Assembly (NCBI GenBank): GCA_963696385.1
Contig: CAVOKF010000005.1
Coordinates: 128,001 to 192,000 of the forward strand
Source: an uncultured delta proteobacterium
GTDB taxonomy: Bacteria; Myxococcota_A; Polyangia; Polyangiales; Polyangiaceae
Direction of reading: 5' to 3'
Length of the DNA stretch: 64,000 nucleotides
The notes beneath the pieces were generated by a model. The model did not search any database, was not told the origin of the DNA, and worked only from the letters and a program-made list of their open reading frames with translations. Made by a program: the position numbers and the translations under genes. Shown here in pieces: positions 20,841 to 46,600 of the stretch (position 1 is its first letter; each line of letters starts with the position of its first letter).

Positions 20841-21005
20841 GCCCAATTTACGAATGATGCCACGCTGCCCGGCCCGTGTGCAGCCCGTTTGCGTATCGGC
20901 CGACCGAGAAGTCGTCCAGGAAGACCATGGCGACAATTCAGACATGGGAGGGCACTGCACGGACCGAGCTCGCTGCAACGACGGCGCGGTGTAGACTGCG
21001 AGGAG

Positions 21006-23267: not shown

Positions 23268-23295
23268 CTTACCGGCTTCAGGCGATCGGGAGGGC

Positions 23296-24201
23296 ATGAG
23301 CAGCCGACCCGCGATTCGCCGCGCCATCGACTGGGGCGAGCTGTCGCCCCTTCGTCTGCGCGCCCGCGAGGTTGCCGAGGGCCTCTACGCGGGTATTCAC
23401 CGAAGCTCGTTGCGTGGCGCTGGCATTGAGTTCGGAGGGTACAGGGAGTACGTCCCCGGCGACGACCTGCGCTGGCTCGACCGTCGCTCGCTCCTCAGAC
23501 ACGATCGATGGTTGGTCCGCCAATTCGAGACCGAGACCGATCGTGCGGTGGCCATCGTCCTTGACGCGTCGGCGTCGATGACCTACCGCGGCCCGCGCGC
23601 GCCGGCCGCGAAGATCGCATTCGCCTCCGTCGTCGCCGCGGCGCTGGCGCGCGTCGCTCTGGCGAGTGGCGATCCGGTCAGCCTGACCTTTATCGCCGGC
23701 GTTCGCGTGACGCCGGTTCGACGAGCCAGCGGACAAGAGCAATTCGAACGCGTGCTGGTGGCTCTCGAGTCCGCAGAGCCGGGCGGAGACGCCTATACGG
23801 ATCCGGAAGTCATCGATCGCGTGATCCAGTCGGTGGCGCGCAGTAACCGTCGCGGTGCGATCATCGTTGTGCTAAGCGATCTGGTGGATTGGCCGGACGG
23901 GGCGATCGACCGGGTCGCAACGATGGGGACGGGAGGGCGCATTCTGGTGGTCACGCGCGTGCTCGATCCCGCCGAGGCGAACTTTCCCTTCGAAGGCACC
24001 GTCCGCCTCCGCGCGCTCGAGGGTGAATCCATGGTCGAGACCGACGCCGATGCGGCCCGCGAAAGCTATCTTCGAGCGCTCGCACGCCTGACGCACGACT
24101 GGCGGGACGCTATGGTTCGTCGTGGCGGTCGATTTCTGACCGCTACCAGCGCGGATTCCCCGGTCACGCTCGTTCGCGAGATCGTCGAGTCAGTCCGATA
24201 G
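23296..24201 (+). CDS. DUF58 family protein
   Basis: G.HRS..RG.GIEF..YREY.PGDDLRWLD, VLDASASM, LSDL. Confidence 0.9.
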   Translation: MSSRPAIRRAIDWGELSPLRLRAREVAEGLYAGIHRSSLRGAGIEFGGYREYVPGDDLRWLDRRSLLRHDRWLVRQFETETDRAVAIVLDASASMTYRGPRAPAAKIAFASVVAAALARVALASGDPVSLTFIAGVRVTPVRRASGQEQFERVLVALESAEPGGDAYTDPEVIDRVIQSVARSNRRGAIIVVLSDLVDWPDGAIDRVATMGTGGRILVVTRVLDPAEANFPFEGTVRLRALEGESMVETDADAARESYLRALARLTHDWRDAMVRRGGRFLTATSADSPVTLVREIVESVR

Positions 24202-24333
24202 CCGGAATCCTGCGTTCATTCTATCGCGCGAGCATCGGGCCGAGAGCGCCGTCACGGACCGGGCGCCGGTCGCGATGGTCCCCGCAATGCGGCGTGCCGC
24301 GAGAAGGGGGCGCAATGCAACCACTTAGGGGGC

Positions 24334-26321
24334 GTGCGATCGCTCGGCGCATTCACGCGCATATGCTACCCGTCGCGCGTGGGCGTTCTCACCACGGTCG
24401 CGCTTGTCGTGGCCGTTCTTGTTGCAGTTCCCTTCCTCGCGCACCAGCTACGGAGGCGTCGCGCCGAAGAGCAGCCATTTCCGCCCGCTCGCCTAGTCGA
24501 CGCGGCGCCGCCGCAGGCGCGGCGCCGCTCTCGTTTGGAGGACCGTGCTCTTTTTGTCACGCGGGCTTCTGCGGTCGTAGCCCTCGCCGTGCTTGGCGCA
24601 TCGCCGTTCGTGCGATGCTCGCGGCTCTCGCTCCAACGATCGGGAGGCGCGTCGGTCGCAATGGCCATCGTCTTGGACGACTCGATGAGCATGCAGGCTG
24701 ACGCTGCCGGACGATCGCGCTTCGAGCGGGCCCGGCGCGGCGCGCACGAACTGCTGGCCTCTGCTCGAGAGGGTGACGCGGTGGCGCTTGTACTCGCTGG
24801 TAATCCTGCTCGCGTTGCGCTGGGGGCGACGACGGACATGGATGCGGCTCGTCAGGCCATCGATTCGCTCGCCGCAAGCGACCGCGCCACGGATCTCGAT
24901 GGGTCCGTCGTTCTGGCGGCGGATCTCTTGACCCCACTCCCGCAGGTCGATCGGCGGGTGGTGGTATTGAGCGACCTCGCCGACGGACATTCCGAAGGGC
25001 CGCCGCTTGGGCCCGCTTTGCCGGTACCCCTATGGGTTGCGCTTCCGGAATTGTCGGTCGACAAACCCGATTGCGGCGTTCTGCGCGCGGATAGGAAAGG
25101 GGCGCGGGTCCGAGTCGCCGTCGTTTGCGGTCCGACGCATAGCGCGGTCGGTCGCGACGTTATCGTGGAGGACGCTAAGGGCAACGAGCTCGGGCGCGAG
25201 ACCGTGAGCTCGGCGCCGAACGCCGACGTGACGGTCGTCCTGCCGTCTTCGGAACGAGCGCAGCGCGCGCGGCTCTCGGGCATCGACGCCATCGCGTCCG
25301 ACGACACGGCCCCAGTGGTTGCGGAGGTTGGACGCCAGGTGATCGCCGTGGTCGCCGACGTCGGCGATGAGGCCGTCGCCACGGGAGGCCCGCCGCTCGT
25401 CGAGCGGGCCCTCGCAGCGCTGAAGGTCGACGTCGACGTCGCGCCGGTCCCGGCGACCCCTGATCGCGTCGAGGATCTTTCCGCCGATCTCGGATTGATC
25501 ATCGATGATCCTCCCGGGCTTACTCCAGAGCAGCGGCACGCGGTCGCCGCGTTCATGGATGCCGGTGGCGTCGTTCTTTTGGCGATCGGACCACACGCCG
25601 CGGCGGCTCCCTTGGGTGCTACGCTTGAGCCGATCGCGATGCACCCTGTCTCATGGAAAGAGACCAAGGCCCGCGGATCTTCGCCGAATACAGCCGGGGT
25701 GTTGGCCGGCAGCGAGGCCACCTTGGTCGACCTCGGCGCCCCACGTCGAGCGGCGCTCAGCCCCGAGGATGTCGGGGCTTTCGAGCCCATCGTATCCTGG
25801 GAAGACGGTGCCTTGTTGGTCGGGCGCCGCACGATGGGCCGCGGCGAAGCATGGATCGTCACTCTGCCTCTTTCGATCGATGCGAGCGATCTAGCTCTCC
25901 GTCCCGCGTTCCTGGCGCTGCTCGACGCCTGGGTCGGGAGCGCACGCGAGCGTTCGGCCCCCCTGCGGAGCGACGTTGGCACTTCCTGGGGTTTCCCTGG
26001 GGCCGGTCAAGTTCTCGTTCAGGGTCCCGGCGGACCGGTTGCGACGACGCGTGACCGTGGGATCATTCGCGTCGTTCCCCCCGGATCGGCGCCTATCGCA
26101 TTACGGTCGACGGAAAGTCGGAGACCCGGATTGCGGCGCCAGTTCCGCGCGAGCTCGACATGCGCCCTCGCCCTACTCCGGCAGAGGCGACAGCGCCCAG
26201 CGTCCGCGATCGACGAGGTGCGGTAGACGCGAGCGGTCCCGTGGCCATCGCTTTGCTAGCGCTGGTGGCGCTTGAGCTCGTTCTTCGAATCGTATCGCGT
26301 CGACAGGCGGAGGCGACATGA
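24334..26321 (+). CDS. BatA/VWA domain membrane protein, with a 1-nt frameshift in the C run at 26077-26082 (start uncertain)
   Basis: VPFLAHQ N-terminal BatA-like motif and MIDAS DDSMSM. After the shift the sequence reads IGAYRITVDG...ELD...ALLALVALELVL to TGA at 26319-26321. Confidence 0.8.
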
Positions 26322-26908: not shown

Positions 26909-26980
26909 GCCGTGCCGCCCTGGACGTCGGCACCCCGACTTGCGCGCGCCGGTGATCACCGCGATAGTTCCCTTTTGACC

Positions 26981-29120
26981 ATGCAGTCTCCGTTCCGGTT
27001 GACCACGACATTCGAGCCGAAAGGCGATCAGCCGCAGGCCATCGAACACCTTCTGCGCGGGCTCGAACGAAACGAGCGCGATCAAGTCCTGCTTGGGATC
27101 ACCGGCTCAGGCAAGACGTTCACGATCGCCAACGTCATCCGTCGCTTCGGAAGACCTACGCTCATCCTTGCACCCAACAAGACCCTTGCCGCTCAGCTCT
27201 ATGGCGAGATGCGCGAGCTTTTTCCAGAGAATGCCGTCGAGTATTTCGTAAGCTATTACGATTATTATCAGCCAGAGGCTTACATACCTTCAACCGATAC
27301 GTTCATCGACAAGGACTCAATCATCAACGATCAGATCGACCGCATGCGCCATTCGGCGACGGTTGCGCTCCTGTCGAGACGCGACGTCATCATCGTAGCG
27401 AGCGTGAGCTGCATTTACTGGAATCGGAAGTGCCGAGAGCTACCACGGCCTCGTCATGACGCTTGCGGTTGGCGAGGAGCTCCGCCGCGACACGCTCCTC
27501 CGCCAGCTCGTCGACATTCAGTACGAGAGGAACGACGTCGATTTTCACCGCGGCACGTTTCGCGTCCGCGGCGATGTGGTCGAAATATTTCCTACGTACG
27601 AGCACGACACCGCGATTCGCGTCGAGTTCTTCGGTGACGATATCGAGTCCATCAAGGAAGTGGATCCGCTGCGCGGTCGGGTGAAGGGTGTTCTCGAGCG
27701 CTACGCGATCTATCCAGGCTCGCACTACGTCACGCCGCAGACGCAGATGCGCCGCGCGATCGGAAGCATCCGCGAGGAGCTTCGCGATCGGCTCGAGTTT
27801 TTCGATAAGGAGGCGCGCTTTCTAGAGAAACAGCGAATCGAGCAGCGGACGCTATATGACCTTGAAATGATGGAGCAGATGGGGTTCTGCTCGGGAATCG
27901 AGAACTATTCGCGACACCTGTCCGGGCGCAAGGCCGGGGAACCACCACCGACCTTGCTCGATTACTTTCCTCCCGATTTCTTGCTCGTCATCGACGAGTC
28001 GCACCAGACGCTTCCTCAGCTGCAAGGGATGTATCGCGGCGATCGCGCCCGCAAGGAGACGCTTGTCGAGTACGGATTCCGCCTTCCCAGTGCGCTGGAC
28101 AACCGGCCCCTCAAGTTCGAGGAGTTCGACAGACACATTCATCGGATCATCTACGTCTCCGCCACCCCGGGAGAATACGAGATCGAGAAGGTACAGGGCG
28201 TCGTCGTCGAGCAGCTGATTCGCCCGACCGGGCTCATGGATCCTCAAGTCGAGGTGCGTTCCGTGTCGGGCCAGGTCGACGACTTATTGGGCGAGATCAA
28301 GGATCGCGCAGGCAAAGGTGAGCGCGTTCTCGTGACCACGCTCACCAAGCGCATGGCTGAAGATCTAACGGAATACTACCGCGAAATTGGCGTTCGCATT
28401 CGCTATTTGCACTCGGACATCGATACGCTCGAACGAATCGACATTCTGCGAGACTTGCGGCTCGGAGAGTTCGACGTACTCGTTGGGATCAATCTACTTC
28501 GCGAGGGGCTCGACTTACCGGAGGTCTCTCTCGTGGCCATCTTCGATGCCGACAAGGAGGGGTTCTTGAGGAGTTCTCGATCCTTGATTCAGACGATGGG
28601 CCGGGCGGCGCGGAACGTCAACGGGCGGGTCATCATGTACGCAGCGAACGTGACTCCTTCGATGAAAAACGCAATGGAGGAGACCACTCGCCGCCGCGCT
28701 GTTCAGGGCGCCTACAACGAGTCGCACGGGATCGTGCCACAGACGGTTGTGCGCGCCGTGATGAACATCAATCCCGCGTCTGGAACAATTGACTATTTCA
28801 ATGTCCCGAAGATCGACAGGGGCGTTCGACCCACGGCCACGGGCGACGATCCCGCAGGCGAAATTCAAGAGCGGCTCGCTGCCATGCGACTCGAAATGTT
28901 CTCGGCTGCCGAAAATCTCGACTTTGAAAGGGCTGCTCGCATTCGCGACGAGTTGAAGAAATTTCAAGCGGTTGCCGGTAGCGCCGGGTCCGAGAGCGAA
29001 GAGGCGGCCTTCGAACCGTACGCCTCGGGCGGCAAGCCCAAATCAGGGCCGCGCCCGCGCGGGGCAGCGAAGGCGGTCTCGGCGTCGGGCTCGAGGGGAC
29101 GGCGATACAAGGCTCGCTGA
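26981..29120 (+). CDS. uvrB: Excinuclease ABC subunit B, with a +1 frameshift at about 27419
   Basis: [46 protein letters not shown]. The join reads TGC ATT TAC t GGA ATC GGA (CIY-GIG). Confidence 0.95.
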
Positions 29121-31032: not shown

Positions 31033-31710
31033 GTGAACCGACGCTTCGCCTCCGTCGCGATCGCACTGTCCGTCGTCGCGTTCATGGGCCTCGAGACGGC
31101 GGCGATGTTGCTCTACCCCGGCGGCACGTGGTGGGATCCGACCTCGCATGGGTCGAGCATCTCGCAAAATTATCTATGTGACTTCGAACGGCGAGAAGCC
31201 ATTGATGGAGCAGCTAATCCGATCGGATCGTGGCTGGCGGAGGCAGCCATGTTCTCGTTGGTCCTCGGCCTAATGGCGTTCTGGAACGTCATGCCGAGCC
31301 TTATGGGTCGAGGAAAGGCCGGCCCCGTAGTGCGCACGCTTGGACTCGTCTCGCTGTTTGGAGTCGTGGCCGTGATTTTGCTGCCCAGCGATAGATTTGG
31401 CCGTCCGCACGGTGTTGCCGTGATCGTGGCCGGCGGGCCAGGGCTCGTCGCCGTGGCGCTTGCCGTTCGGGGACTTTTCCGTCGCGAGCGGCGGCCGAGG
31501 ATCGCGGCATGGCTCGGCGCGGCGACGCTAGCCATTGCCGGAGTCGATCTTATCGGGTTCGCCATGCATTTGATCGCGGGTGGTTTGGGCACTCCGCTAC
31601 TGCCTGCCTTAGAGAAGGCGGCCCTGACGCAGCTGCTGGCGTGGATGGTGGCTGTTTCGATGCGGATGGCGGGTGGGGTCAACCGAGTCTCGGGTCCATT
31701 CGAGGGCTGA
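31033..31710 (+). CDS. Hypothetical integral membrane protein
   Basis: About 6 hydrophobic segments; YPGG and N..CD motifs. Confidence 0.7.
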   Translation: MNRRFASVAIALSVVAFMGLETAAMLLYPGGTWWDPTSHGSSISQNYLCDFERREAIDGAANPIGSWLAEAAMFSLVLGLMAFWNVMPSLMGRGKAGPVVRTLGLVSLFGVVAVILLPSDRFGRPHGVAVIVAGGPGLVAVALAVRGLFRRERRPRIAAWLGAATLAIAGVDLIGFAMHLIAGGLGTPLLPALEKAALTQLLAWMVAVSMRMAGGVNRVSGPFEG

Positions 31711-31731
31711 CCCCTCGATACGGTGTGCTCC

Positions 31732-31880
31732 TCACGCCCGGCCGTAGTGGCGCTTGTAATGATCGATGAGGCCGTTCGTGGACGGGTCGTGCGTCGCGAC
31801 CGGGCCCAAGGCGGCGAGCTCGGGCTCGATCTTCTTTGCGAACTGTTTGCCGATTCCACGCCCCATTGGTCGAAGCAGGC
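31732..31880 (-). pseudogene. pgi: 3'-terminal remnant of glucose-6-phosphate isomerase
   Basis: Minus strand reads CFDQWGVE, then (one base missing at 31853/31854) GKQFAKKIEPELAALGPVATHDPSTNGLIDHYKR. This matches the PGI C-terminal signature FDQWGVELGK...HDxSTNGLI. Confidence 0.85.
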
Positions 31881-32092
31881 TGAGGTCTCTGACGACGTAA
31901 GTCATTGATGTTCAACGAACCAATGGGTGGCCTCATCCTTGCTTTATAGCGATCCATTTCCGTGTTCCGAGATCCGCGGCGTGGAATCCTCGAGGTACAC
32001 AGCCAACCGCCGGGATGCGTCCGCCGAGGGTTTGATCGATTCACCTGAATTTCGCCCCGCGGACGGGTGTCGTTCTAAATTGAAGCCATCCG

Positions 32093-33955
32093 ATGCATTG
32101 GCTTCGCGCGCTCGCCCCGGCTGCAGCCGCAGTCGTCATGCTGCTTGGTATCAGTATCGCTGGGTCTTGCGGTCACGCGCCCCCATTGCAACTCCTCCGC
32201 GTGCTGGACATCGCGCCGCGCGACGTGGAGCTCGGCGATCGCGTGGTGATCTTGGGAGAGGGCTTTGCGCCGGGCAAGGCCGCGCGAGTCACATTTCGAG
32301 GGACTCTGCACCGAGCCGGCGAGCGCGGACAGCGCAACGCGGTAATCGAGACCACGGGTGTCGTCGTCGGTCCGCAGCGCGTGGAAATTTCGTTTGACGA
32401 GGCGCTCGAGGCCATCTTCTGCCGATCGGGCGATCGGGCTGCCCATACGACATTCGAAGGCGATGTCGAAGTAGCGTTTGCTGCCTCGGAATTTGGGGCT
32501 CCGCCGATCGGCGGTGCACTCCAGGGCGTCACGATCGACGTTCGAGCCCCTGCCGGGGCCGCGGACGGAGCCCGCGACGCAGAAGGGGAGCGATTGCTCA
32601 ACTGGATCGGTTTGCGTGTGGCGTCTGATGGGCGGACGGGTCTCCTAATCGAGGCGGTCGTCCCTGGATCGTCGGCTGAGAAGGCGGGCGTCGTCTCGGG
32701 CGATGTCCTGGCGAGCTTCGATGGTGTGCGTGTCATGTCCCCCGGCGACGCGGTGCCCGCGGCCGGAGACACGGAAGCCTGGGTGGGCGTTCGGCCATCG
32801 GGCTCCGCCACCGAGATTGGCCGAGCCGTTTCGGTTGCTGGCTTCCGTCGCGCGCCGCCGGAGCGCTTTGCGGCCGCCACACTCATCGTTCTGACGGCAT
32901 TGACGGCCGTCCTGCTTTTGGGCACACCAACTCCCGGTCCTGTGGCGGTGGTTCTTCAGCGCTTCGTGTGCCGTCTGCGTGCCCACACCGCTTCGGACGC
33001 AAAAGACGGGGCATGGGGGCAGCATCTTGGCGTCTTCGTGAGGGGTGCTCGTCCGCCGCTCCACGTCGGCGTCCCGTCTGCTGTTGCCGGTTTGATTGCC
33101 TGTGCAACCTTTGCCGTCATGCCGTTCGGCCAGTATCTCGTGGCGGCGAGGCTTGACGTCGGGGTCCTGTTCGTTGCCGCCGCGACTGCGTTGGCCGCGG
33201 CCGCGTTCGTCGCGGCAGACTCACCCTCGCGAGGCGCGCTGAATGCGTTGCAAGTACTGTGGCAGCACGTCCCGGGCGCTCTAGCGGTGGCCGGTGTCGT
33301 GCTCTCGACCGGATCGCTGCGTGTTCAAGAGGTGGTGCGTGCTCAAGGTGGGTCGCCCTGGGACTGGCTAGCTTTCCGGAGCCCCGCTTCGCTCGTCGCC
33401 GCATGGATTTTATTCGAAAGTGTAAGCGTCGAACGCAGCTGTTCTTATCAATCCACCGGGCTCGCGACGCGGGTCGACGACTTGACTGCCCCGCAGGGCG
33501 CGCAAGGGGGCCCGTCGTTCGAGGCCGCACTGCGTGTACATCAGTTCGTTATCGCAGGTCTCGTGAGCGCGCTCTTTCTAGGCGGCTGGTCACTGCCCGG
33601 TCTTTCGCCCGCGCAGCAAGACTCTCGGCCGGCGCTCGAGGTCGTGGGCGCGACCGTGTTTCTCGCAAAGGCAACGGCCCTCGTGTTCGTATCGACGTCT
33701 GCACGCAGGGGACTTCCGCCTTTGACCCTCTGGCAGAGAACGCGTTGGACCGTCGAGTGCTCTCTACCGATATCTGTCGGAAGTCTCGCCGGGTGCGCAG
33801 CCTGGGCCAACTGGGGACCTCCGCCAGCCACGCAATGGCTCGCGAGCGGCGGTCTCACTTTGGTCGCGCTTCTGGTCGCCGTCGCGCTCGGCCACCGGGT
33901 GGTCTATGGGCTGACGTCACCGGTCGTCGATGCGCGCCTCAATCCTTTTCTTTGA
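32093..33955 (+). CDS. IPT/TIG-like + PDZ + degenerate NuoH (complex I subunit 1)-like membrane domain
   Basis: Signal peptide; IAP..VELGDRVVILGEGF; PDZ GLLIEAVVPGSSAEKAGVVSGDVLASFDG; NuoH-like FAVMPFG..LDVGVLF, GSL...VVRAQ, LFLGGW, FLAK. Confidence 0.75.
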   Translation: MHWLRALAPAAAAVVMLLGISIAGSCGHAPPLQLLRVLDIAPRDVELGDRVVILGEGFAPGKAARVTFRGTLHRAGERGQRNAVIETTGVVVGPQRVEISFDEALEAIFCRSGDRAAHTTFEGDVEVAFAASEFGAPPIGGALQGVTIDVRAPAGAADGARDAEGERLLNWIGLRVASDGRTGLLIEAVVPGSSAEKAGVVSGDVLASFDGVRVMSPGDAVPAAGDTEAWVGVRPSGSATEIGRAVSVAGFRRAPPERFAAATLIVLTALTAVLLLGTPTPGPVAVVLQRFVCRLRAHTASDAKDGAWGQHLGVFVRGARPPLHVGVPSAVAGLIACATFAVMPFGQYLVAARLDVGVLFVAAATALAAAAFVAADSPSRGALNALQVLWQHVPGALAVAGVVLSTGSLRVQEVVRAQGGSPWDWLAFRSPASLVAAWILFESVSVERSCSYQSTGLATRVDDLTAPQGAQGGPSFEAALRVHQFVIAGLVSALFLGGWSLPGLSPAQQDSRPALEVVGATVFLAKATALVFVSTSARRGLPPLTLWQRTRWTVECSLPISVGSLAGCAAWANWGPPPATQWLASGGLTLVALLVAVALGHRVVYGLTSPVVDARLNPFL

Positions 33956-34025
33956 AGCTCGACGCATGCATGGAAGCGTCAAGCTTTACAGCCCGCCGAC
34001 CGAAGACGATAGCTTGAAGCCGTCG

Positions 34026-35615
34026 ATGGCCGACTCCGCCGGTGCCCCCCTGCAACAGCACATCGTCCTCTCCCAGACGCTTTGGCTGCTCATCGCTCCA
34101 CTGCTTCTCCAGCTCGCGTGGCACCTCACCGCGGCTTGTTGGCCTCGCCGACGGGGAGCGAAAGTTACAGTCAATCGGAGCAAAGGGGACTGGGCAAGCA
34201 TAACGGGCATGGCAACCATTGGATGCGTGACGGGAGCGACGCTCGCGCACGCGATCGCACTGGTCCAAGCGCCCACACCTACGGCGTTCGTCGAATATGT
34301 CACGAGTGGCGCTCGAGTTGGCAGGGTCGATGCCCCGATTGCCTTCGATTTCGACTCGCTTTCGGCTGCAGCCTGCCTCCTCTTGTGCATGGTTGCCTTC
34401 GGTGCCGCGACGTGGCTGGCCATGCATCCCGAGGTTGTGCGCAGCTCGGGCGCATGGGCATGCCTTGAGCTGGGGCTCGCTGGGGGGATGGTATCGTTTC
34501 TGGCCGACGGAGTGGTCACGATGGCGATGGGGTGGACGCTTGCGGCCATCGCTGCCGCGTGGCTCGCCGGGTGGACGGATCTCCGGGCAGCCGCGCTCGC
34601 GGCGACGCGCGCGGCCGCCGCAACCGCGCTCCTGCTCTTAGGAGGGGCTGTACTTTTCTGGCGGCTCGAGGGAGCGAGACAGGACTCCGCGGTCCAGGGG
34701 TCGTCCGAGTTCGTCGTGCTGCGCTCGAGCGACCCACGGGTTCATGGCTCTGCGTTGACGCTGGCGAGTGTTCCAGGCGCGCTCGTGTACCTGGATGGTG
34801 CACGAACCCCGCTCGCCAGGGCCCCGTTCGTTGGACTGCCGATTCCAAGCGGTTCGCACTCCATTCGCATCCATTCCGGCAGTGCGTCGGACGACGCGGT
34901 AATTACCGCAGAAGCTTCGGCTGAAGGCACGTTGATCACGCTGATACCGTCCGGCCTTTCTCTTTCGTTTCGCGAGGTCGGCGCCGCGATCGCCGCTGGC
35001 TCTGGCGAGCCGTCCGAACCGGCCGGCGATGACGGCGTCGCGGCGTCCGCACTCTGGCTCTGGATGGCGGCAGCCTGGGTCGTAAGTGCGGGGGCTCCGC
35101 CGGCCAATGTGCCCGCCCCACTTGTCGCGCTCTCGCATGGTGCGACCACCGCGATCTTGGGTCCGTTCCTGCTCGGCCGTGCCAGCGTTCTGCTCGCGCT
35201 CGCCCCACGAACAGGTCTTGTTCTGGCTGCGGCGGTCGCGGCGATCCTCGTCGCCGCTTCGCGTAGCCTTTGGTTGCCCGCGTCGCGCGCCGTTGATGCA
35301 GCGTCAGGGGCCACCGCGTGGCTGCTCGACCGATCACCCGCGCGTGCAGGAGCCCTACTGATTCGCTTCGAGCATTGGGTCGTGGATGGGATTGGCGGAC
35401 TTGCGGGAACGCTCGCTCGGATCGCCGCTTGGGGGGCGTCGCGGGTTGACGCGAGACTATTTAAAGGCCCTGGCGTCGCGATCGGTACGCGCGTCGCCTG
35501 GTTCGGACGTGAAGCGGAGCCGATCGTCGGCATGCCCCTCGGTCGCGTTGCCTGGGTCGTTGTGGTCGCCTTGGCCGTGGCCGCGGTGGCGCATGGCCTC
35601 TGGGCGGGCCGGTGA
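34026..35615 (+). CDS. Degenerate, internally shortened NuoL-like subunit with an inserted PEGA-like domain
   Basis: FDSLSA, FLADG..MAMGW...WLAGW, PAPLVALSHGAT..GPFLLGR, C-terminal WVVDG; insert SVPGALVYLDG...GSHSIRI. Confidence 0.65.
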   Translation: MADSAGAPLQQHIVLSQTLWLLIAPLLLQLAWHLTAACWPRRRGAKVTVNRSKGDWASITGMATIGCVTGATLAHAIALVQAPTPTAFVEYVTSGARVGRVDAPIAFDFDSLSAAACLLLCMVAFGAATWLAMHPEVVRSSGAWACLELGLAGGMVSFLADGVVTMAMGWTLAAIAAAWLAGWTDLRAAALAATRAAAATALLLLGGAVLFWRLEGARQDSAVQGSSEFVVLRSSDPRVHGSALTLASVPGALVYLDGARTPLARAPFVGLPIPSGSHSIRIHSGSASDDAVITAEASAEGTLITLIPSGLSLSFREVGAAIAAGSGEPSEPAGDDGVAASALWLWMAAAWVVSAGAPPANVPAPLVALSHGATTAILGPFLLGRASVLLALAPRTGLVLAAAVAAILVAASRSLWLPASRAVDAASGATAWLLDRSPARAGALLIRFEHWVVDGIGGLAGTLARIAAWGASRVDARLFKGPGVAIGTRVAWFGREAEPIVGMPLGRVAWVVVVALAVAAVAHGLWAGR

Positions 35616-35622
35616 GGCAGCC

Positions 35623-37689
35623 GTGAGAGCGTCGTTCATCCGCTGGCTCGGCGTTGTCGGCGCGATCGTGGTCGTGCTCGCCACCGCGACGGCCCGGGCG
35701 GATCCGTCCGGAGGGCGCATCGCGCTGACGCTCTCGGCAGGTGGACAGGGCCCGCTCGTGCTTCGGCCCGGGGAGGGGGGAATGGTCGGCCAGTTCAGAA
35801 TTGGCAACGTGGGCTCCGATCCACTGACCGTTTCGCGCATTGCAATCCGTGGAGACGAAGACGACATCCGCTCGCCGTCACGCCTGTCTGTGCGCTTCGT
35901 TGACGGGGCGGCTACCACCGCGACGATTGCCCCGGGTGCGTCGAAGGACGTAATCGTCTCATGGATGCCCGACCGCGATCCGCGGGTCCGACAGGCATTC
36001 GGTCATGTCGTCGCCACCTCGACCGACGAGCGGTCGGGCGAAGTCGCGATGGGCTTTCGGGCTCAGCTGCCGACGGGCCTCGGACGGATCGGCGAGCACG
36101 CACTCGCGTTGCTCGTGCTGGGGCCGCTGCTGGTCATTGTCCTCGTCGCGGCGGCCCGAATGGCGGGGCTGCGCGACGATCCGCGCATCGGCCTCTTGTG
36201 TGTCGCGGTCGGGGCGCTTGAGCTGCTGTTGGCCTTGTGGTGTTACCGGCGTTTCGCAAGCGACGTTGCCCGCGCAGACGGAAACGACGGCTTTCAACTC
36301 GTTGAGCGCGCGGTGTGGGTGCGATCCATTGGTTCGGAATGGTACGTCGGTGTCGACGGCGCGAGCATTGCGTTCGTGCTGCTCGCCGCCGTCGTCGCAT
36401 TCGTGGCGCTGCTCATCGCGAGCGTCGAGCGGCGAGGTGGTGCGTACTACGCGACACTCGCGTTGCTCTCGACCGGCATCATGGGGGTTCTCGTCGCGTT
36501 GGATCTCGTGCTGCTGTTTGCTGCCTGGCAGGTCGTCTGGCTGGCACTGGTGCTGTTGGTGGGCGGTTGGGGTGGCCGGCGCAGTGCGCTGGCCGCTAGT
36601 AAGATGGCTGTTGCAGGTGTCGTCGGGTCGACTGCGTTGCTGATCGCATTCGTTGCTCTCTCCCGAGCCTCGGGACCGACCTTTCTGGTCGATGGTGCAG
36701 CGATCGCGCACACGCTTGCGGTCCCCGAGTTGTCGCGAACGGCCTTTTCGGCAAGCGCGCCCATTTGTGGCATGCCCTTCGTCGCCGTGACCTCGGCGCT
36801 GCTCTTTGCCGGGATTGCGATACTCTCTCCGGTGGTGCCGTTTCACCGATGGCTGCCGGATGCGCTTGAGCACGGGCCCGCTTCGGCGGGCATCCTTCTA
36901 GGTGGAGTGGTGGTCACCCTTGGGCCGTATCTGCTCCTGCGGGTGGGGCTGAGCGCCCTGCCAGAAGGGGCACGGTGGGGTGCGGCAGCCGTTGCGGTTC
37001 TCGGTTCGTTCGGCGCCGGTTGGGGTGCCTTGTGTGCGATGGCACAGCGCGATCTGCGGCGCTTCGTCGCCTACACTACGATCGCCGCGTCGGGGTTGTC
37101 GCTGTACGGCATCGGCTCTCTCACCGCGGAAGGAATCACGGCGGCGATGATGGCGCTTTTTGCGCATGGCCTCTCGGCCGCGCTCCTACTGGGCGTTGCC
37201 AGTGCCATCGAACAACGCGTTCACACGAGCGACGCGCAGAGACTCGGTGCGCTGGTCGTCGACGCACCGGCACTTCGGTTGTTCGCGGCGGTCGGATTAG
37301 GCGTTTCGCTCGGTGCTCCGGGCCTCGTCGGCTGGTGGGGGATTTTGCTCGCTTTTTTGGGGGGATTCGCCCGCTACCCGGCTCTGGCCGTCGTTCTGGC
37401 GGCTGCGGTCGTGGCCTCCGCCGCCGCCCACATCCGAATCGGCCGCCTGCTGCTGATGGGCGAAGTTCACCGGTCGTGGCGCGACAGCACTTACCTGAAG
37501 CCATTTGGCGGGGTGCTTCCCGATGCGACGTCCGCCAATCTCGTCGCCCTCGCACCCCTTGCCGCGATTGCCGCCGTCCTCGGCCTATGGCCGTCGCCCA
37601 TCTTGGCGCCGATGGGGGTCAGCGCCCGTGACAGCAGTGCACTCGTGGACCTCGAACGCGCGGACGCGCGGACGCAGCGACTCGAATGA
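35623..37689 (+). CDS. Signal peptide + Ig-like domain + degenerate NuoM-like antiporter subunit
   Basis: GTG start with GAGG upstream; ATARA signal site; FQLVER..W...GVDG.S, DLVL, GGWGG, PFHRWLPDA, AQRDLRRFVAY, AHGL, SLGAPG. Confidence 0.82.
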   Translation: MRASFIRWLGVVGAIVVVLATATARADPSGGRIALTLSAGGQGPLVLRPGEGGMVGQFRIGNVGSDPLTVSRIAIRGDEDDIRSPSRLSVRFVDGAATTATIAPGASKDVIVSWMPDRDPRVRQAFGHVVATSTDERSGEVAMGFRAQLPTGLGRIGEHALALLVLGPLLVIVLVAAARMAGLRDDPRIGLLCVAVGALELLLALWCYRRFASDVARADGNDGFQLVERAVWVRSIGSEWYVGVDGASIAFVLLAAVVAFVALLIASVERRGGAYYATLALLSTGIMGVLVALDLVLLFAAWQVVWLALVLLVGGWGGRRSALAASKMAVAGVVGSTALLIAFVALSRASGPTFLVDGAAIAHTLAVPELSRTAFSASAPICGMPFVAVTSALLFAGIAILSPVVPFHRWLPDALEHGPASAGILLGGVVVTLGPYLLLRVGLSALPEGARWGAAAVAVLGSFGAGWGALCAMAQRDLRRFVAYTTIAASGLSLYGIGSLTAEGITAAMMALFAHGLSAALLLGVASAIEQRVHTSDAQRLGALVVDAPALRLFAAVGLGVSLGAPGLVGWWGILLAFLGGFARYPALAVVLAAAVVASAAAHIRIGRLLLMGEVHRSWRDSTYLKPFGGVLPDATSANLVALAPLAAIAAVLGLWPSPILAPMGVSARDSSALVDLERADARTQRLE

Positions 37690-38047
37690 GACTCAAGGCC
37701 CCCGGCCCCGACCGACCGGGGGGGCCGAAGACCGGACCCGGACGGGCCCCGGGAACGCGCTCAATGTTTATCTGAATACTCCGTTATCCATCTTGCAGGA
37801 TGAGCGCGCCGGCCGCCGTGGCGGCTCCTGTGGAGTGAAGCGAATCCATGTTGAGTGACGCCAGGCGTTCGCGCCTTGCAGCAGTATCGGTTTGTGCCGC
37901 GCTGGCCGGTCTCGTCGCTGGCGCTGGCACGGCGCAGGCGTTCGCGCTCAAGCGCACCTCGCTCGGGCTGCCGTGCGTCGCAGGTCGACGGGGCAGCCAT
38001 GATGTTTACCGTATCGTCTGAGAGGCACTGGTTCGAGGGAGGCTGAC

Positions 38048-38716
38048 GTGGCAAATGTAAGGTCCGAGAGGTATTGGGGCGGATTGACCTCGCGACCGAA
38101 GCGCGGGCGTGATTCGGAAGAATGGTCCGCTCTGCTGGCACATGATCTGAAGACGCCATTTGCGGCTATTTCAATGAATCTCGATTATGTTATTTCTGAT
38201 CTACCCGCCGGGACGTCCGACTCGGTTCACGAAGCGCTCTCGGACTGCAAGGAAGCGAACGGTCGCGCCGTCCGCCTCGTCCAAGACATGGTCGACGGAC
38301 TCCGCTTGGCGACCGGCGAGCTGAAGCCGTCCTTGGTCGACGTCGCGATCTTGCACGTTGTCGAGCGTGTCGTTGCGGCCATGGGGACTGACGCCACCGC
38401 GCACGGCGTGCGCATCCTTTGGGCGTCGGGTAGCGATGTGGTGCGAGCCGATGTAGGCCTCATCGAGCGTGCACTCGGGCGACTCCTCGAGCGCGCGATC
38501 CGGCATGCGGGCGGACGCTGCGTCGTCGTAGACCAGCGTGCCGGGACCATCACCATCCGGGTCGAGACCCCCATCGACAGCGACATCGATTCGTCCGAAC
38601 GCGCGCTTGCGACACATTTCGCGGAGACTGCCGTTCGTGCGCAAGGGGGGTACTTCGCGGTCGAATCCGGCACCGGCTTGCTCGCGTATCGCGTCAAGCT
38701 CCCAATGTGCGAGTGA
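38048..38716 (+). CDS. Sensorless HisKA protein with a degenerate HATPase domain
   Basis: H-box AHDLKTP; N-box reads RLLERA; no G1/F/G2 boxes. Confidence 0.7.
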   Translation: MANVRSERYWGGLTSRPKRGRDSEEWSALLAHDLKTPFAAISMNLDYVISDLPAGTSDSVHEALSDCKEANGRAVRLVQDMVDGLRLATGELKPSLVDVAILHVVERVVAAMGTDATAHGVRILWASGSDVVRADVGLIERALGRLLERAIRHAGGRCVVVDQRAGTITIRVETPIDSDIDSSERALATHFAETAVRAQGGYFAVESGTGLLAYRVKLPMCE

Positions 38717-38723
38717 CGCCGTT

Positions 38724-39665
38724 TCAATCCTTGAGCGCCTCGGCGCCTCCGATGATCTCCATCAGTTCCTTGGTGATGGCTGCCTGACGGGCGCGGTTGT
38801 AGGCGAGCGTCAAGCGCTCGATCATGTCCTTGGCGTTTCGAGTCGCTGCATCCATTGCCGTCATCTGCGCACCGAAGAAGCTCGCTTGGCTCTCGAGCAG
38901 TGCGCGGTACAGGGTAATCTCGACGTACATGGGGACGAGCCGCTCGAGAACGGCTCGTTCGTCGGGCTCGAAAATGTAATCGCTCGACGCACGTCCCTCG
39001 GCTGTCTTAGGCGATCCGCCGTTTGATCGGCCATCCGTTGGACTGGTCCAAGCTCTTCCTGATGGGTCACCGAGCGGGAGCAACCGCTCGATTGTCACCT
39101 TTTGGGCGATGGCGCTTTTGAACTCGTTGAAGACCAAATACACGGAGTCGAACTCACCGCGCTCGAAACGGTGGATGAGCCAGCCTGCGACCTCCCGAGC
39201 CTTACCTACGTCGAGAGTTTCATAGATTCGCTGAAAGTCCCTTGCCACTTTTGCTTCGCGGCGCCCGAGATACTCTCGGCCTTTGCGGCCGCACGTAGCG
39301 AAGGTCACGTCGACGCCACCCTCCGCTTTTTCTCGCCAGGCTCGCTCCGTCGCCTTATTCACGTTCGTGTTGAGCGCTCCGCATAGGCCGCGGTCGCCCG
39401 AGAAGACCACGATCAGCGCTCTCTTTTCCGGCCGGCGGGCGAGAAGCGGGTGCAATGGCTCACTTTGAGACTCGATCGAGACCGCCGTGGCGCGCGCGAC
39501 CGACTCGAGCACGTCTGCCGTCTTCACGGCATAGGGCCGCATCGACACGATACGCTGCTGCGCGCGTGTGAGGCGTGCGCCGGCCACCATTTTCATGGCG
39601 CGCGTAATCTTCTGCGTCGCCTTGGTGCTCGCGATGCGCTTTCGAATCACCTTGAGCGACGGCAT
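38724..39665 (-). CDS. atpG: ATP synthase gamma subunit
   Basis: KITRAMKMVA, DRGLCG, RQAAITKELMEII. Confidence 0.97.
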   Translation of the reverse strand: MPSLKVIRKRIASTKATQKITRAMKMVAGARLTRAQQRIVSMRPYAVKTADVLESVARATAVSIESQSEPLHPLLARRPEKRALIVVFSGDRGLCGALNTNVNKATERAWREKAEGGVDVTFATCGRKGREYLGRREAKVARDFQRIYETLDVGKAREVAGWLIHRFERGEFDSVYLVFNEFKSAIAQKVTIERLLPLGDPSGRAWTSPTDGRSNGGSPKTAEGRASSDYIFEPDERAVLERLVPMYVEITLYRALLESQASFFGAQMTAMDAATRNAKDMIERLTLAYNRARQAAITKELMEIIGGAEALKD

Positions 39666-39667
39666 GG

Positions 39668-41978
<2,311 letters not shown>

Positions 41979-41982
<4 letters not shown>

Positions 41983-42743
41983 AAAGCGCTCTCTCTCGTT
42001 CCGAACGGATCCGCAGGTTGCGCAACGGCAGTGCCCTTCGCGCCGCCGAGTTCGCTCAAGTACGCCTCCGCCAATCGCTCTTGGTCCTCCTGCGTTATGC
42101 GTTGCGCCAAGAGCTCTCTAGCTGCCAGGACGGCCATTTCGACCGTATCGCGCAACAAATCCAGGCGGATTTGCTTCAACTCCTGCTGGACCAGAAACTC
42201 GGCGTCGCGGCGCATTCGGTCAGCTTTCGCCTCCGCGTCCTTGACGATCCGGTCGCGCTCGGCCTCACCGGTGCGCAGCAGTGCGTCGCGGGCCGCCCGG
42301 GCCTCTTCGTCGACCCTCTCGAGCTTGGCCTGATAGGTCTTTGCGCGTGCCTCGGCTTCCTCCTTCATACGTTGCGCTTCGTCGATGTCCTTGGCGATGC
42401 CGTCGCGGCGACTTCGAAGGGCCGCGGCAATTGGCCGCTTGCCGAGCAAGTAGTACCCTCCGACGAGGATGCCGAAGTTGACGAGCATCGCGATGAACGG
42501 TGGCGTATCCGACCCGAACTGCGTCCAGTTCATGGGTGCCGGGCCCGTGTCCTCGGCTTGCTTGAGGGTCTCCTTTGCAGGCTCGCGACGCGCGCTCTCG
42601 TCCGTTGTGGCCGCCGAGCCGCCTCGCGCCGGCCTTGCGTTCCGCGCATGATTCGATTGTGCCCAGGCCAAAAGCGACCACGCGGTGACGAGCCCCATGG
42701 CGACGAGGGCGAGCCGCCTCGCGATTCGTGCGCCCCTCCTCAC
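41979..42743 (-). CDS. atpF: ATP synthase b subunit with an N-terminal extension
   Basis: NF..L TM segment, KRPI...L..RR..I, coiled coil; operon position. Confidence 0.85.
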
Positions 42744-43641: not shown

Positions 43642-46600
43642 CTACAGAATCCCGAACTCCTTCAAGCGTCGATAGAATGTCCGGCGCGGCAGGTTGATGA
43701 GTTTCGCCGCTTGCACGCGGTTCCAATTGCTGGCGGTTAGGGCGCCAAGGATTCGCTCGCGCTCCGCAGCCTTGAACTCCTCCTTGCTCTTCGCGCCGGG
43801 AGGTGGCGAGGGTCGGGCTGGCGGATCATCTACCCGCAGATCGTTTCCTAGGCTTGGGTGCAGTTTGTCCGACGGGATCTCCAAGTCATCCGGCCGAATT
43901 TCTGTGCCCTCGGTCATGAGCCACGCGCTCAGAAGAATATGCTCGAGCTGTCGAACGTTACCCGGCCACGCATAACTGCAGAGCCTTCTCAGAGCCGCCC
44001 TCGATACGGTCTTGCGTTCACGGCGGTACCGCGTCGCGAAGCGCGACAGGAAAAAATCGATGAGTAGCGGAATGTCTTCCACGCGTTCGCGCAACGCGGG
44101 AACGTGCAGTTCGACGACATGAAGTCGGTAGAATAAGTCGGCCCGAAACGTGCCGTCCGAAACCATCCGGGTGAGGTCGCGGTGGGTGGCAGCAATGATT
44201 CGCGCGTCGACCGGCTCTTCGCGGGTTGCCCCGACGGGACGCACGCACTTCTCTTGCAGAACACGGAGCAAGCCCAATTGCATTTTTTGTGGCATCTCGC
44301 CGATTTCATCGAGCAAGAGGGTGCCTTGGTCGGCCTCTTGCAAGACGCCCCGGCGGTCCCGATCAGCACCGGTGAAGGCGCCTTTGACGGCACCGAAGAG
44401 CTCCGATTCCAGGAGGTTCGCGGGGATCGCGCCGCAATTCACGCCGACGAACGGCTTCTTGGCACGTGGACCAGCCTGGTGGACGGCGCGGGCGACCATC
44501 TCCTTGCCCGTGCCGCTCTCGCCCGTGACCAGCAGAGGAACGTCCGTGTCCTTCACGCGCTCGATGAGTGCGTAAAGACGCCGCATGGCGGCGCTCGTGC
44601 CGACAAGTCCCGCGTAGCCGAAGTGGCTTCGGAGCTCGGCGCGCACTTGCTTCAAGTCTCGGCGCGCCTCGGCAAGCTGTTCGGTTCTCTTGCCGAGCAT
44701 GCGAGCAAGCTCGTCGTGCGCTAAGGCGAGCTCTCCGTTGGCCCGTGCGAGCTCGTCGGCTCGGTCGCGGTTCTCGGTGAGGAGTCGGGCGTTTTCAATC
44801 GCGATCGCCGCTTGGTCTGCAAAAGCGCTGAGCGTCGGAACCTCGTGCTCGAACCGGACCCCTGGTCGCATTCGCGTCTCGACGTAGAGCGCTCCGATGG
44901 TCCGTCCGACGGGCGGTGCGCCTCGGATCGGCACGCAGGCGATCGATTGGATCATCAACTGATGCACACTGACCGCTTCGGCCAAGCGCTGGTCGTCGCG
45001 CGCGCTCAGCGTCACGACCGGCTCGCCGCTTTCGACGACGCGTTCGGCCACCGATCGCGAAAACCTTGCGTGCGGCTCGTCCGCGCCGCCGCGGGTTCGC
45101 GCGGTATGCGTTTCCAGTTCGCCGTTGTCTCCGATGAGCAGGACGAAGCCTCGCTCCGCGCCGAGCAACGCCACTGCGTGATCGGTGACTCGCGGCAGCA
45201 GCCGATCCATGTCGTGCTCGCTCGCCAACTCGCGGGTGATCGCCAGAATGCGGCTCAGCCGATCCTCGGCAAGGCGCCCCGTGAAGATCGAGGTCGTGCC
45301 GCTCGCCGTGCGCAAGACGCCGGCGGGAACAGCGACGCTCAGCGCCGGCGACGCGACCGTCGCCATGTGGGCCTGCCGCAAGGCGCGGCGGCGTGGATCG
45401 TCCCAGAAGACCTCGCGCAGGTCGCGCGGCAGTTTTGCGGCAATCTCCTCCAACATCGCGAGCGCGACCTCGGTGTCACGTCGCGCAGTCGCCATCGCGC
45501 CATGGAATGCGCCTAGGCGCGCTCGAGCGTCGAAGGCTTGCCAGGCCCACTCGCGCCTACCGGCCTGCTGCGCAGCCTCGATCGAGGCATTCAGCGCGCG
45601 CCGCGCCACGTCCTCCCTGCCTTCCGCCTGCGCGATTGCGCCAGCCACGAGTTGCGCGAGCGCTTCGTGCTCTCCGAGGCCGCCCTCTCCCGCTGCCCCG
45701 CGGATGGCGCTCAACTCGCGCGTGAGATCGTGGGGTGCGCCAGCGCCGGCGCGAGCGCGTGCGAGCAATCCCTCGAGCCTCGACTCCGCCGCGTCGTGCG
45801 TGCGACCTTGTGTTTGCCAAGCGCGCGCCGTCTCCTCGTAAAGGCGAACCGCGGCCTCGGCGTCGCCCGTGCGCGCGGCGTGTTCGGCCTCAAGCCCGAG
45901 AAGCTGGGCACAGGCCGCCGCGGACAGCTCGCTGCGCCGGGCAGCCAAGAGGTCGATGGACGCTCGGGCCCGCGCCCAGCGTCCGAGGTACAGATCGAGG
46001 TTGGCCAGATTGAGTAGCGCCTGGGTGACGGCCGCTCCACTGCCCGCGCGGCGTCCCATATCGACCGCCGCCTCTAGGTGCACGAGGGATTGTGCGAGGT
46101 CCCCTTCCGCTTGCGCGAGACCCGCGAGGTTGAGCCGGATCGTTGCTACCGTCGCGGCGTCTTGCGCCTTCTCCGCGGCGGCGAGCGCAGCTTCGTAAGC
46201 GTCGCGAGCCTCGAGCGATCGTCCGGCCCGCTGGTGCGCAATGGCGGCAGAGCCGAGGGCGACGGCCTCGACGCGGGGGTCGTTCAGCCGGCGAGCCACC
46301 TCGATTGCACGGTCGAGCGCCCCGCGTGCGCCAGCATCCTCGCCCGTCAGCGCGAGCGCAACCCCCCGGACGCTCAGCGCTTCGGCAGCCTGTACATCCG
46401 TCGCTCCCTCGCCGATGACGCTCTCCGCAAAGCTCGCCGCCTGCGCGTAGTGCCCCGCCCGCAGGCACGCGCGCGCACGTAGCGTTTTCCAGGTACGGGC
46501 CTGGCCCGCCGCAGTGCAGTCGTCCTCAATCGCAGTGAGATCGTTCAGCGCCCCTGCCGCGTCTCCTCGACCAATGGCCATTCGTGCTCCTGCGAGCCCC

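Follow-up and report, generated by a model that had tools for sequence, protein, structure and literature searches.

Degenerate complex I membrane subunits with added soluble domains in Polyangiaceae: a probable remnant of a second, decorated complex I

Introduction

Why would a bacterium with an ordinary complex I keep three further genes for complex I-like membrane proteins elsewhere in its genome? The question is raised by a stretch of 64,000 nucleotides (nt) from an uncultured member of the Polyangiaceae (contig CAVOKF010000005.1, positions 128,001 to 192,000), hereafter the window, which contains three intact same-strand (+) open reading frames (ORFs) at 32093-33955, 33930-35615 and 35386-37689. 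We call their products the H-like protein, X and the M-like protein. An earlier note, made from the DNA letters alone, had taken them for degenerate NuoH, NuoL and NuoM with extra soluble domains and had proposed a repurposed, probably non-pumping membrane complex. Here we report that the three proteins are indeed derivatives of NuoH, NuoL and NuoM that have lost pump and quinone-site residues, and that intact subunits with the same domains occur in relatives. The fusions are therefore older than the degeneration, and the trio is a reduced remnant of a second, decorated complex I isoform and not, as had been thought, a complex newly built on the complex I scaffold.

Results

Layout of the three genes

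The three genes have the following extents.

32093..33955, plus strand: H-like gene (620 amino acids, aa); N-terminal hydrophobic helix, TIG-like beta-sandwich, PDZ domain and degenerate NuoH membrane domain
about 34026..35615, plus strand: X gene, truncated NuoL-like; likely start Met33 at 34026, longest ORF from 33930
about 35593..37689, plus strand: M-like gene (about 698 aa); signal-like helix, Ig-like domain and NuoM fold; longest ORF from 35386

Met33 of X (base ~34026) is the position at which most homologues begin in the alignments, and the M-like gene likely starts at ~35593. With these starts the intergenic distances are +70 nt (H-like/X) and -23 nt (X/M-like); the close spacing of three co-oriented intact frames, noticed before, is seen with the corrected starts as well.

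The H-like protein is a PDZ-bearing NuoH derivative

The H-like protein matched Pfam NADHdh (PF00146) in two stretches at 54.9 bits (cut-off 27) and PDZ_6 (PF17820) at 30.1 bits (cut-off 27). Against the NCBIfam NuoH equivalogs it scored about 39 bits, every cut-off being at least 305. An AlphaFold2 model built with 42 homologues (predicted local distance difference test, pLDDT, 76) showed an N-terminal helix, a beta-sandwich at residues 36-151, a PDZ domain at 174-247 and helices up to residue 608. The membrane part resembled the NdhA, NuoH and ND1 chains of complex I, the best VIA Z being 18.8 over 209 residues at a root-mean-square deviation (rmsd) of 3.0. Fold matches had Z 17-19 over 200-226 residues at rmsd 3.0-3.8, and all 50 matches listed were NdhA, NuoH or ND1.

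32198..32545, plus strand: TIG/IPT-like beta-sandwich (residues 36-151), strands in the model
32612..32833, plus strand: PDZ domain (residues 174-247), PDZ_6 above cut-off
32861..33916, plus strand: NuoH-like transmembrane domain (residues 257-608), quinone-site and E-channel residues lost

The TIG label of the sandwich comes from the model and from a language-model search lead (23 of 30 matches with the TIG set, score 0.93), and the sandwich gave no Pfam match to TIG/IPT (PF01833). The binding-loop Gly of the PDZ domain (G173) is invariant in the 42 homologues. Of the 57 positions conserved in at least 93% of 30 canonical NuoH sequences of the phylum, the H-like family keeps 17, and the window's protein retains 6 of 27 NuoH marker residues. 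The acidic residues of the loop between transmembrane helices (TM) 5 and 6 and the motif of the TM1-2 loop are lost; the conserved charged residues of the NuoH TM1-2, TM3-4 and TM5-6 loops (quinone cavity, E-channel) were, as a set, not found in the H-like protein.

The C-terminus of the H-like protein was also conspicuous: its last four residues (window 33941-33952; family consensus S-P-F-L) are near-invariant in the 42 homologues. With nine predicted helices this tail would be cytoplasmic; it is thus probably no ligand of the protein's own PDZ domain.

X is a cut-down NuoL with an inserted beta-sandwich

X had no Pfam family match, and NDH_I_L (TIGR01974) gave only an E-value (E) of 0.68. 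Its AlphaFold model (m2d3163431607, 19 homologues; pLDDT 69, predicted template modelling score 0.72) contained, in order, two helices, a beta-hairpin (residues 118-141), four helices, a beta-sandwich (261-340) and three helices, followed by a 73-residue helix (461-533) and a final TM (537-560), this C-terminal part being modelled at a low pLDDT of 38-60. The model superimposed on E. coli NuoL (7p7k_L) with a VIA Z of 30.8 over 319 residues at rmsd 3.7; all 50 Foldseek matches listed were NuoL, ND5 or NdhF chains (best E 5e-7). A profile of the X family matched the genome's own NuoL at E 2.7e-8. When X was aligned to full-length NuoL of relatives, TM1-9 were present, the region of about TM10-15 was deleted, and the lateral helix HL and the last anchor helix were retained (EHWVVDGIGG against DRWIVDGIVN in full NuoL). 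X is therefore NuoL-derived by fold, profile and alignment.

34071..34691, plus strand: NuoL TM1-6 with the beta-hairpin (residues 48-254), from model and alignment; TM5 Glu reads Thr
34710..34949, plus strand: PEGA-like inserted beta-sandwich (residues 261-340) in the TM6-TM7 loop, strands in the model
35031..35300, plus strand: NuoL TM7-9 remnant (residues 368-457), from alignment; about TM10-15 absent after it
35310..35609, plus strand: HL-like long helix (461-533) and last TM anchor (537-560), from model (low pLDDT) and alignment

The soluble domain of X is an insertion in the periplasmic TM6-TM7 loop, not a terminal fusion, and is homologous to an insert at the same place in the intact NuoL of relatives. 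Searched alone, the insert scored 14.7 bits (E 0.028) against PEGA (PF08308), below the cut-off of 20.8; the model shows a beta-sandwich. The earlier statement that each gene is fused to a soluble domain thus holds in that all three carry one, and is amended for X, where the domain is inserted and the PEGA label falls short of its threshold.

Among the key residues of NuoL, the TM5 Glu is Thr in X, the TM7 Lys is Val, and the seven residues of the LYVWLPD motif are gone. Only the TM8 His is kept; the TM11 His/His/Lys and TM12 Lys/Asp were lost with the deleted helices, and the 14-helix core of NuoL is incomplete in X. The number of helices lost from X would be even, going by the topology of NuoL, so that HL and the anchor should stay on their usual sides of the membrane.

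The M-like protein is a NuoM fold without its key charges

The M-like protein matched PF00361 at 139.1 bits (cut-off 21.5) and narrowly passed TIGR01972 (NDH_I_M; 268.7 against 263.8). To place the key charged sites of NuoM, numbered as in E. coli, the M-like protein was aligned with NuoM chains of solved structure and with the NuoM of the same genome, and the sites were located by motif. The TM5 Glu is replaced by Gln, the TM7 Lys by Leu, the TM8 Lys by Thr and the TM12 Glu by Ile; the genome's own NuoM retains E/K/K/E where the M-like protein reads Q/L/T/I. Across 61 members of the M-like family, neither Lys position ever has a Lys (0%), Glu remains at the TM12 site in 3% and at the TM5 site in 16%, and the substitutes vary among A, L, V, T, P and Q.

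The fold itself has been kept. The M-like protein retains 65 of 129 conserved NuoM positions, many of them Gly, Pro or Trp of the fold, and 86 columns are invariant in 46 M-like sequences. In the M-like family, conservation reaches at least 90% at 58 positions with polar, charged or Trp/Cys residues that are not so conserved in canonical NuoM; 23 of these lie in the Ig-like domain, and others adjoin the old catalytic sites.

35701..36072, plus strand: Ig-like N-terminal domain of the M-like protein; language-model lead, homology to the N-terminus of intact NuoM, many invariant residues

This domain had no Pfam match. Its Ig-like label is a language-model lead to HYDIN/VesB-like Ig (score 0.92), and it is homologous to the N-terminal domain of the relatives' intact NuoM. 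For the labels proposed earlier this means that PDZ stands on a match above cut-off, and IPT (TIG) and Ig-like on a model and language-model leads. The signal-like N-termini were read by eye only.

The assignment to NuoH, NuoL and NuoM in the earlier note was borne out, by profiles for the H-like and M-like proteins and by model, family profile and alignment for X. So was the loss of key Glu/Lys residues in all three, now placed in alignments to solved chains, the genome's own NuoM, family members and the relatives' NuoL.

Relatives possess an intact isoform with the same domains

With the H-like protein as query, a full-length PDZ-NuoH homologue was found in 140 of 151 genomes of the family (named Polyangiaceae in the NCBI records of the homologues) and in 84 of 89 genera, nearly always as a single copy. 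An alignment of 29 PDZ-NuoH sequences, among them that of the window, was scored sequence by sequence for the 27 NuoH markers. The sequences grade from intact to degenerate.

Intact, 26-27 of 27 markers (8 of the 29 sequences): G492, G460, G490, G483, G469, G264, G349, G339
Intermediate, 10-18 of 27 markers: G517, G136, G200, G160, G309, G497
Degenerate, 4-8 of 27 markers: the window's genus, G493, G450, G344, G175, G484, G532, G403, G475

In G492 an intact PDZ-NuoH (PF00146 at 380 bits, plus PDZ) is followed by nuoJ, nuoK, NuoL, NuoM and nuoN; the NuoL has 896 aa with PF00361 split by an insert, and the NuoM has 757 aa with an N-terminal extension. The L and M proteins of the intact decorated sets keep every key residue and share the insert with X and the Ig-like domain with the M-like protein, respectively. 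Two nuoJ and at least two nuoD were found in each of the five genomes with intact forms that were checked, against one of each in the window's genome, and G264, G339 and G349 have two nuoLMN sets each. In a NuoH tree the 30 canonical sequences fell on one side of a branch with SH-aLRT support of 99, and 15 degenerate forms made one group (98).

Intact NuoH, NuoL and NuoM of relatives thus carry the same domains as the trio, and the earlier assertion that canonical subunits have none is not supported as it stood. The fusions are thus older than the degeneration, and the trio is the remnant of a second, decorated isoform, as judged by sequence comparison.

The gene order is the same at 10 of 10 same-genus loci: manC is followed by H-like, X and M-like, in most cases by the HisKA-like gene, and then by atpG-atpA. 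Some of these loci have apparent frame breaks and two a 4-kb insertion. X was found in 21 of 24 same-genus genomes (a count that includes the unpublished G010). The trio lies at the same locus in G344, G175, G450 and G493, and as neighbouring genes also in G200 and G160, so that the synteny extends to other genera; the assemblies of G175 and G200 are near-complete. Trio homologues at 30-67% identity stay full length across genera. As a separate observation, the extra sequence of about 4 kb lies between the H-like gene and X in the same-genus genomes G024 (locus L019) and G012 (L021).

Outside the family, G041 may have an independent degenerate NuoH. PF00146 matches an ORF of 365 aa there (contig C73, 15262-15966) weakly and in two parts, at 44.5 and 31.4 bits, and a strong NuoM (596 bits) lies about 3 kb downstream.

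The trio is under purifying selection

Ratios of nonsynonymous to synonymous substitution (dN/dS) were estimated by NG86 against the closest relative, G003, a method that is rough on GC-rich genes at the dS of 0.5-1.2 seen here.

Whole genes: H-like 0.23; X 0.29; M-like 0.09
Flanking genes: 0.08-0.24
H-like: soluble part 0.20; membrane part 0.25
X: beta-sandwich 0.17; membrane parts 0.27-0.37
M-like: Ig-like domain 0.15; membrane part 0.07

The ratios of the three whole genes are well below 1 with the fusions conserved, which the earlier note had named as support for its reading. The constraint on the M-like protein equals that of atpA and uvrB. Two of the three periplasmic domains, those of the H-like protein and X, are under stronger constraint than the membrane parts of the same proteins. 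In four further pairs the ratio was 0.20-0.36 where the forms are degenerate or intermediate and 0.19-0.31 where PDZ-NuoH is intact. The trio is thus kept by purifying selection.

A separate, ordinary complex I on another contig

The separate canonical complex I that the earlier note had left to be looked for is present, in clusters on contig C3 of the same genome. A single strong NuoH of the genome (344 bits) and three genes that match PF00361 strongly lie on C3; Pfam places nuoA, G, H and I together in a first cluster and nuoE, F, J, L, M and N in a second. The genes nuoD, nuoJ and nuoK each occur as a single copy in the genome, on C3, in a search that covered subunits other than nuoB and nuoC. 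Split clusters nuoEFJKLMN and nuoIHGDBA are described for myxobacteria in the accessible text of PMC2330069, and the ordinary set of the window's genome has this split order.

The ordinary subunits are also unusually long (C3, loci L028:9884-11263 and L029:10818-15290). NuoL has 851 aa, with about 90 beta-rich-looking residues after the last TM; NuoM has 633 aa, with about 95 extra N-terminal residues; and in NuoH, of 459 aa, about 37 inserted residues separate the two stretches alignable to solved NuoH.

Neighbourhood of the trio

Upstream of the trio lie uvrB, a mannose-1-phosphate guanylyltransferase-like gene, a phosphopantetheinyl transferase gene and a membrane ORF; downstream are a small HisKA-like gene and then a convergent atpG-atpA-atpH-atpF block. 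Profile scans of 46 other window ORFs (18 + 28), with small ORFs outside the scan, found no nuo, mrp or hydrogenase family, in keeping with what had been noted from the letters, and thus no nuoA, J, K, N or Q-module gene beside the trio. At 31500-38800, promoters and terminators were not above shuffled sequence: there were no promoters, and 9 terminator-like sites against 7.3 expected. Sequencing runs that share DNA of the locus are labelled soil, peat or wetland; only two of them are metatranscriptomes, each with 0.06 of the sampled words in common.

The HisKA-like protein (38048-38716, between the trio and atpG) is small and soluble (222 aa; HisKA 29.2 bits), and its gene keeps its position in most relatives, including loci that retain only the H-like gene. 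It was rejected as a fourth member, as it also stays at loci without X and the M-like gene. The upstream membrane ORF (31033-31710) was rejected as well: it has no family match and was found at only 3 of 10 same-genus loci.

Other features of the window are noted here for completeness. The atp block (38724-42743, minus strand) comprises atpF, atpH, atpA and atpG and then ends; atpD and atpC were not found after atpG within the window. The uvrB ORF (27456-29120) opens with the UvrB interaction domain at residue 2, and an ORF in another frame (26912-27637) overlaps its upstream end; uvrB could have been broken in two by a frame change or by an assembly error. An aerotolerance-like (Bat) cluster lies further upstream (20562-26226) and encodes proteins of the TPR, DUF58 and BatA/VWA types. 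At 43642-48090 lies a gene for a 1482-aa protein with a Ser/Thr kinase domain, a STAND-type NTPase, TPR repeats, GAF and a sigma-54 activator domain.

Discussion

The identity of the three proteins, their origin, their loss of residues and the purifying selection on them are well established by the comparisons above. Taken together, the proteins would be unable to do the job of NuoH, NuoL and NuoM, and yet they appear to be maintained. We give a probability of roughly 55% to the reading that the trio is what a second, decorated complex I left behind, catalytically dead, and that it persists as a non-pumping scaffold for its periplasmic domains. The isoform from which it came would have been like that of relatives today, with a periplasmic TIG-like and PDZ module on NuoH, a sandwich in a periplasmic loop of NuoL and an Ig-like domain on NuoM; its genes would have adjoined nuoJ, nuoK and nuoN, with a second nuoD nearby. 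On the way to the window's genome, the partners that carry no extra domain (J, K, N and the second Q module) disappeared, X shed about six helices with its lateral helix and anchor kept, and the residues for proton transfer and at the quinone site were replaced. The trio may no longer pump. It may survive as a scaffold in the inner membrane in which X and the M-like protein probably keep an L-M type of arrangement, with the lateral helix as clamp, and which displays the PDZ/TIG-like, PEGA-like and Ig-like domains on the periplasmic side. The decorated isoform would have had this task besides its enzymatic one, and the task would have outlasted the enzyme.

Several observations argue for the scaffold. 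The subunits retained are exactly the three with domains, and the domain-free J, K and N are gone; two of the three periplasmic domains are more constrained than their membrane parts; and the binding-loop Gly of the PDZ domain is invariant. The parts of NuoL by which neighbouring subunits are clamped in complex I are retained in X, whose HL and anchor would keep their membrane sides. The gene order is kept at all same-genus loci compared and in several other genera. Other observations weigh against this reading. The M-like membrane domain is the most constrained part of all (0.07), which a passive anchor does not obviously need, and the NG86 ratios behind such comparisons are rough for these genes. 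In G484 and G532 the locus has the H-like gene without the other two, and in G403 the H-like gene is likewise by itself beside manC; in G042, which has X and a short M-like gene, the H-like protein as query found no H-like gene. Decay thus differs by lineage, and the trio is not an obligate unit. Long branches were flagged in the NuoH tree, so that the single origin of the degenerate group may reflect long-branch attraction. The periplasmic location of the domains goes by the topology of NuoH, NuoL and NuoM and by the signal-like N-termini.

What the domains may have done is a more tentative matter. It is possible, if doubtful, that they gave the second complex I an envelope-facing function, for example towards a periplasmic or cell-wall partner, and that, for the sake of this function, the three subunits with domains stayed on after the loss of the enzyme as a dedicated scaffold or signalling device of the pseudo-enzyme kind. 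If so, the trio would be a natural charge-free antiporter-fold complex held by the NuoL lateral helix.

The same conservation of the fold could be read in another way, namely that the trio proteins are alternative subunits that enter or dock onto the canonical complex I and make a low-stoichiometry or non-pumping variant, a regulator or an envelope tether. In complex I the NuoL lateral helix and last anchor lie along neighbouring subunits, and X keeps both, the helix being modelled at 73 residues; the M-like protein keeps half of the conserved NuoM positions (65 of 129) with a membrane-domain dN/dS of 0.07; and the trio is without N, J or K of its own. We nevertheless regard docking as unlikely. 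The quinone cavity is built by residues of the TM1-2 and TM5-6 loops that are missing from the H-like protein, so that swapping this protein in would kill the enzyme, and it persists alone in some lineages. That persistence belongs to a mosaic of losses across genera (trio, H + M, H only, X + short M), which, with the variable residues at the lost catalytic positions and the frame breaks in relatives (L018, L020 and G264), could also mean that the genes are in slow decay with no function left. Such decay is quite improbable given the intact frames, the dN/dS of 0.09-0.36 in several independent pairs, an M-like protein as constrained as atpA and uvrB, its 86 invariant columns in 46 sequences and newly conserved positions, and homologues that remain full length at 30-67% identity across genera; the frame breaks come from draft or long-read assemblies and may be errors.

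Conservation of this kind might instead speak for a trio that is still a transporter or energy converter working with different residues. The broken-helix motifs of the M-like protein survive (P413, P416, H418, W420, P576, G580), its TM11 His is kept in 90%, and W582, H613 and R615 are new invariant residues near the old sites. However, the central polar axis has been replaced by Ala, Leu, Val, Thr or Pro in a species-variable manner, X is without about six helices, and no partner energy module was found at the locus among the ORFs scanned, which together make this very improbable indeed.

The scaffold reading aside, the main interest of the locus lies in the decorated isoform that it revealed and in a natural charge-free antiporter fold. 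The former is a complex I isoform, widespread in one family, with periplasmic domains on core membrane subunits. The latter is a natural experiment, in which selection still acts on a NuoM that has lost all four charges and on a NuoL cut down to nine helices plus lateral helix, and it bears on which parts of the antiporter fold serve structure and which serve proton transfer. Trio-type proteins are annotated at source as "NADH-quinone oxidoreductase subunit H/M" or hypothetical; the subunit H/M names would overcount respiratory capacity in metagenome bins.

Second complex I isozymes are known in bacteria, both as whole isozymes and as operons without nuoEFG (Spero et al., 2015, mBio, PMC4453560; accessible text). 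The relatives of the window's genome likewise have two isoforms, with two nuoJ, at least two nuoD and two nuoLMN sets. PDZ- or Ig-like-bearing subunits and a residue-dead H/L/M remnant are not mentioned in the accessible text of that paper or of PMC2330069. A search of the full-text literature, with supplements outside its scope, returned no description of PDZ/Ig-bearing complex I subunits or of a dead H/L/M remnant in the text that it reaches.

Compared with complex I NuoH, NuoL and NuoM themselves (PF00146, PF00361, PF00662, TIGR01972, TIGR01974), the trio has the same folds (Z 18.8 for the H-like protein, 30.8 for X); sequence profiles match the H-like and M-like proteins, and X keeps the lateral helix and last anchor of L. 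It differs in its extra periplasmic domains, in the loss of all four NuoM charges, of the NuoL Glu and Lys, of most NuoH loop residues and of about TM10-15 of L, and in having no A, J, K, N or Q module alongside, in a genome that has a separate set. PF00361-type subunits outside a full complex I are found in the Mrp antiporter, in membrane-bound hydrogenase and as DabB in the DAB CO2-uptake system, which keep the charged residues and have partner genes of their own. The trio is likewise a use of a PF00361-type protein outside full complex I, but its charges are lost; a DAB or Mrp module was rejected, no partner families being found among the 46 other window ORFs scanned. The trio also resembles pseudoenzymes, dead paralogues that are kept as scaffolds, in lacking catalytic residues, in appearing to be under purifying selection and in having new conserved positions. 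It differs from them in that three subunits of one membrane machine have degenerated jointly, one of them being shortened as well.

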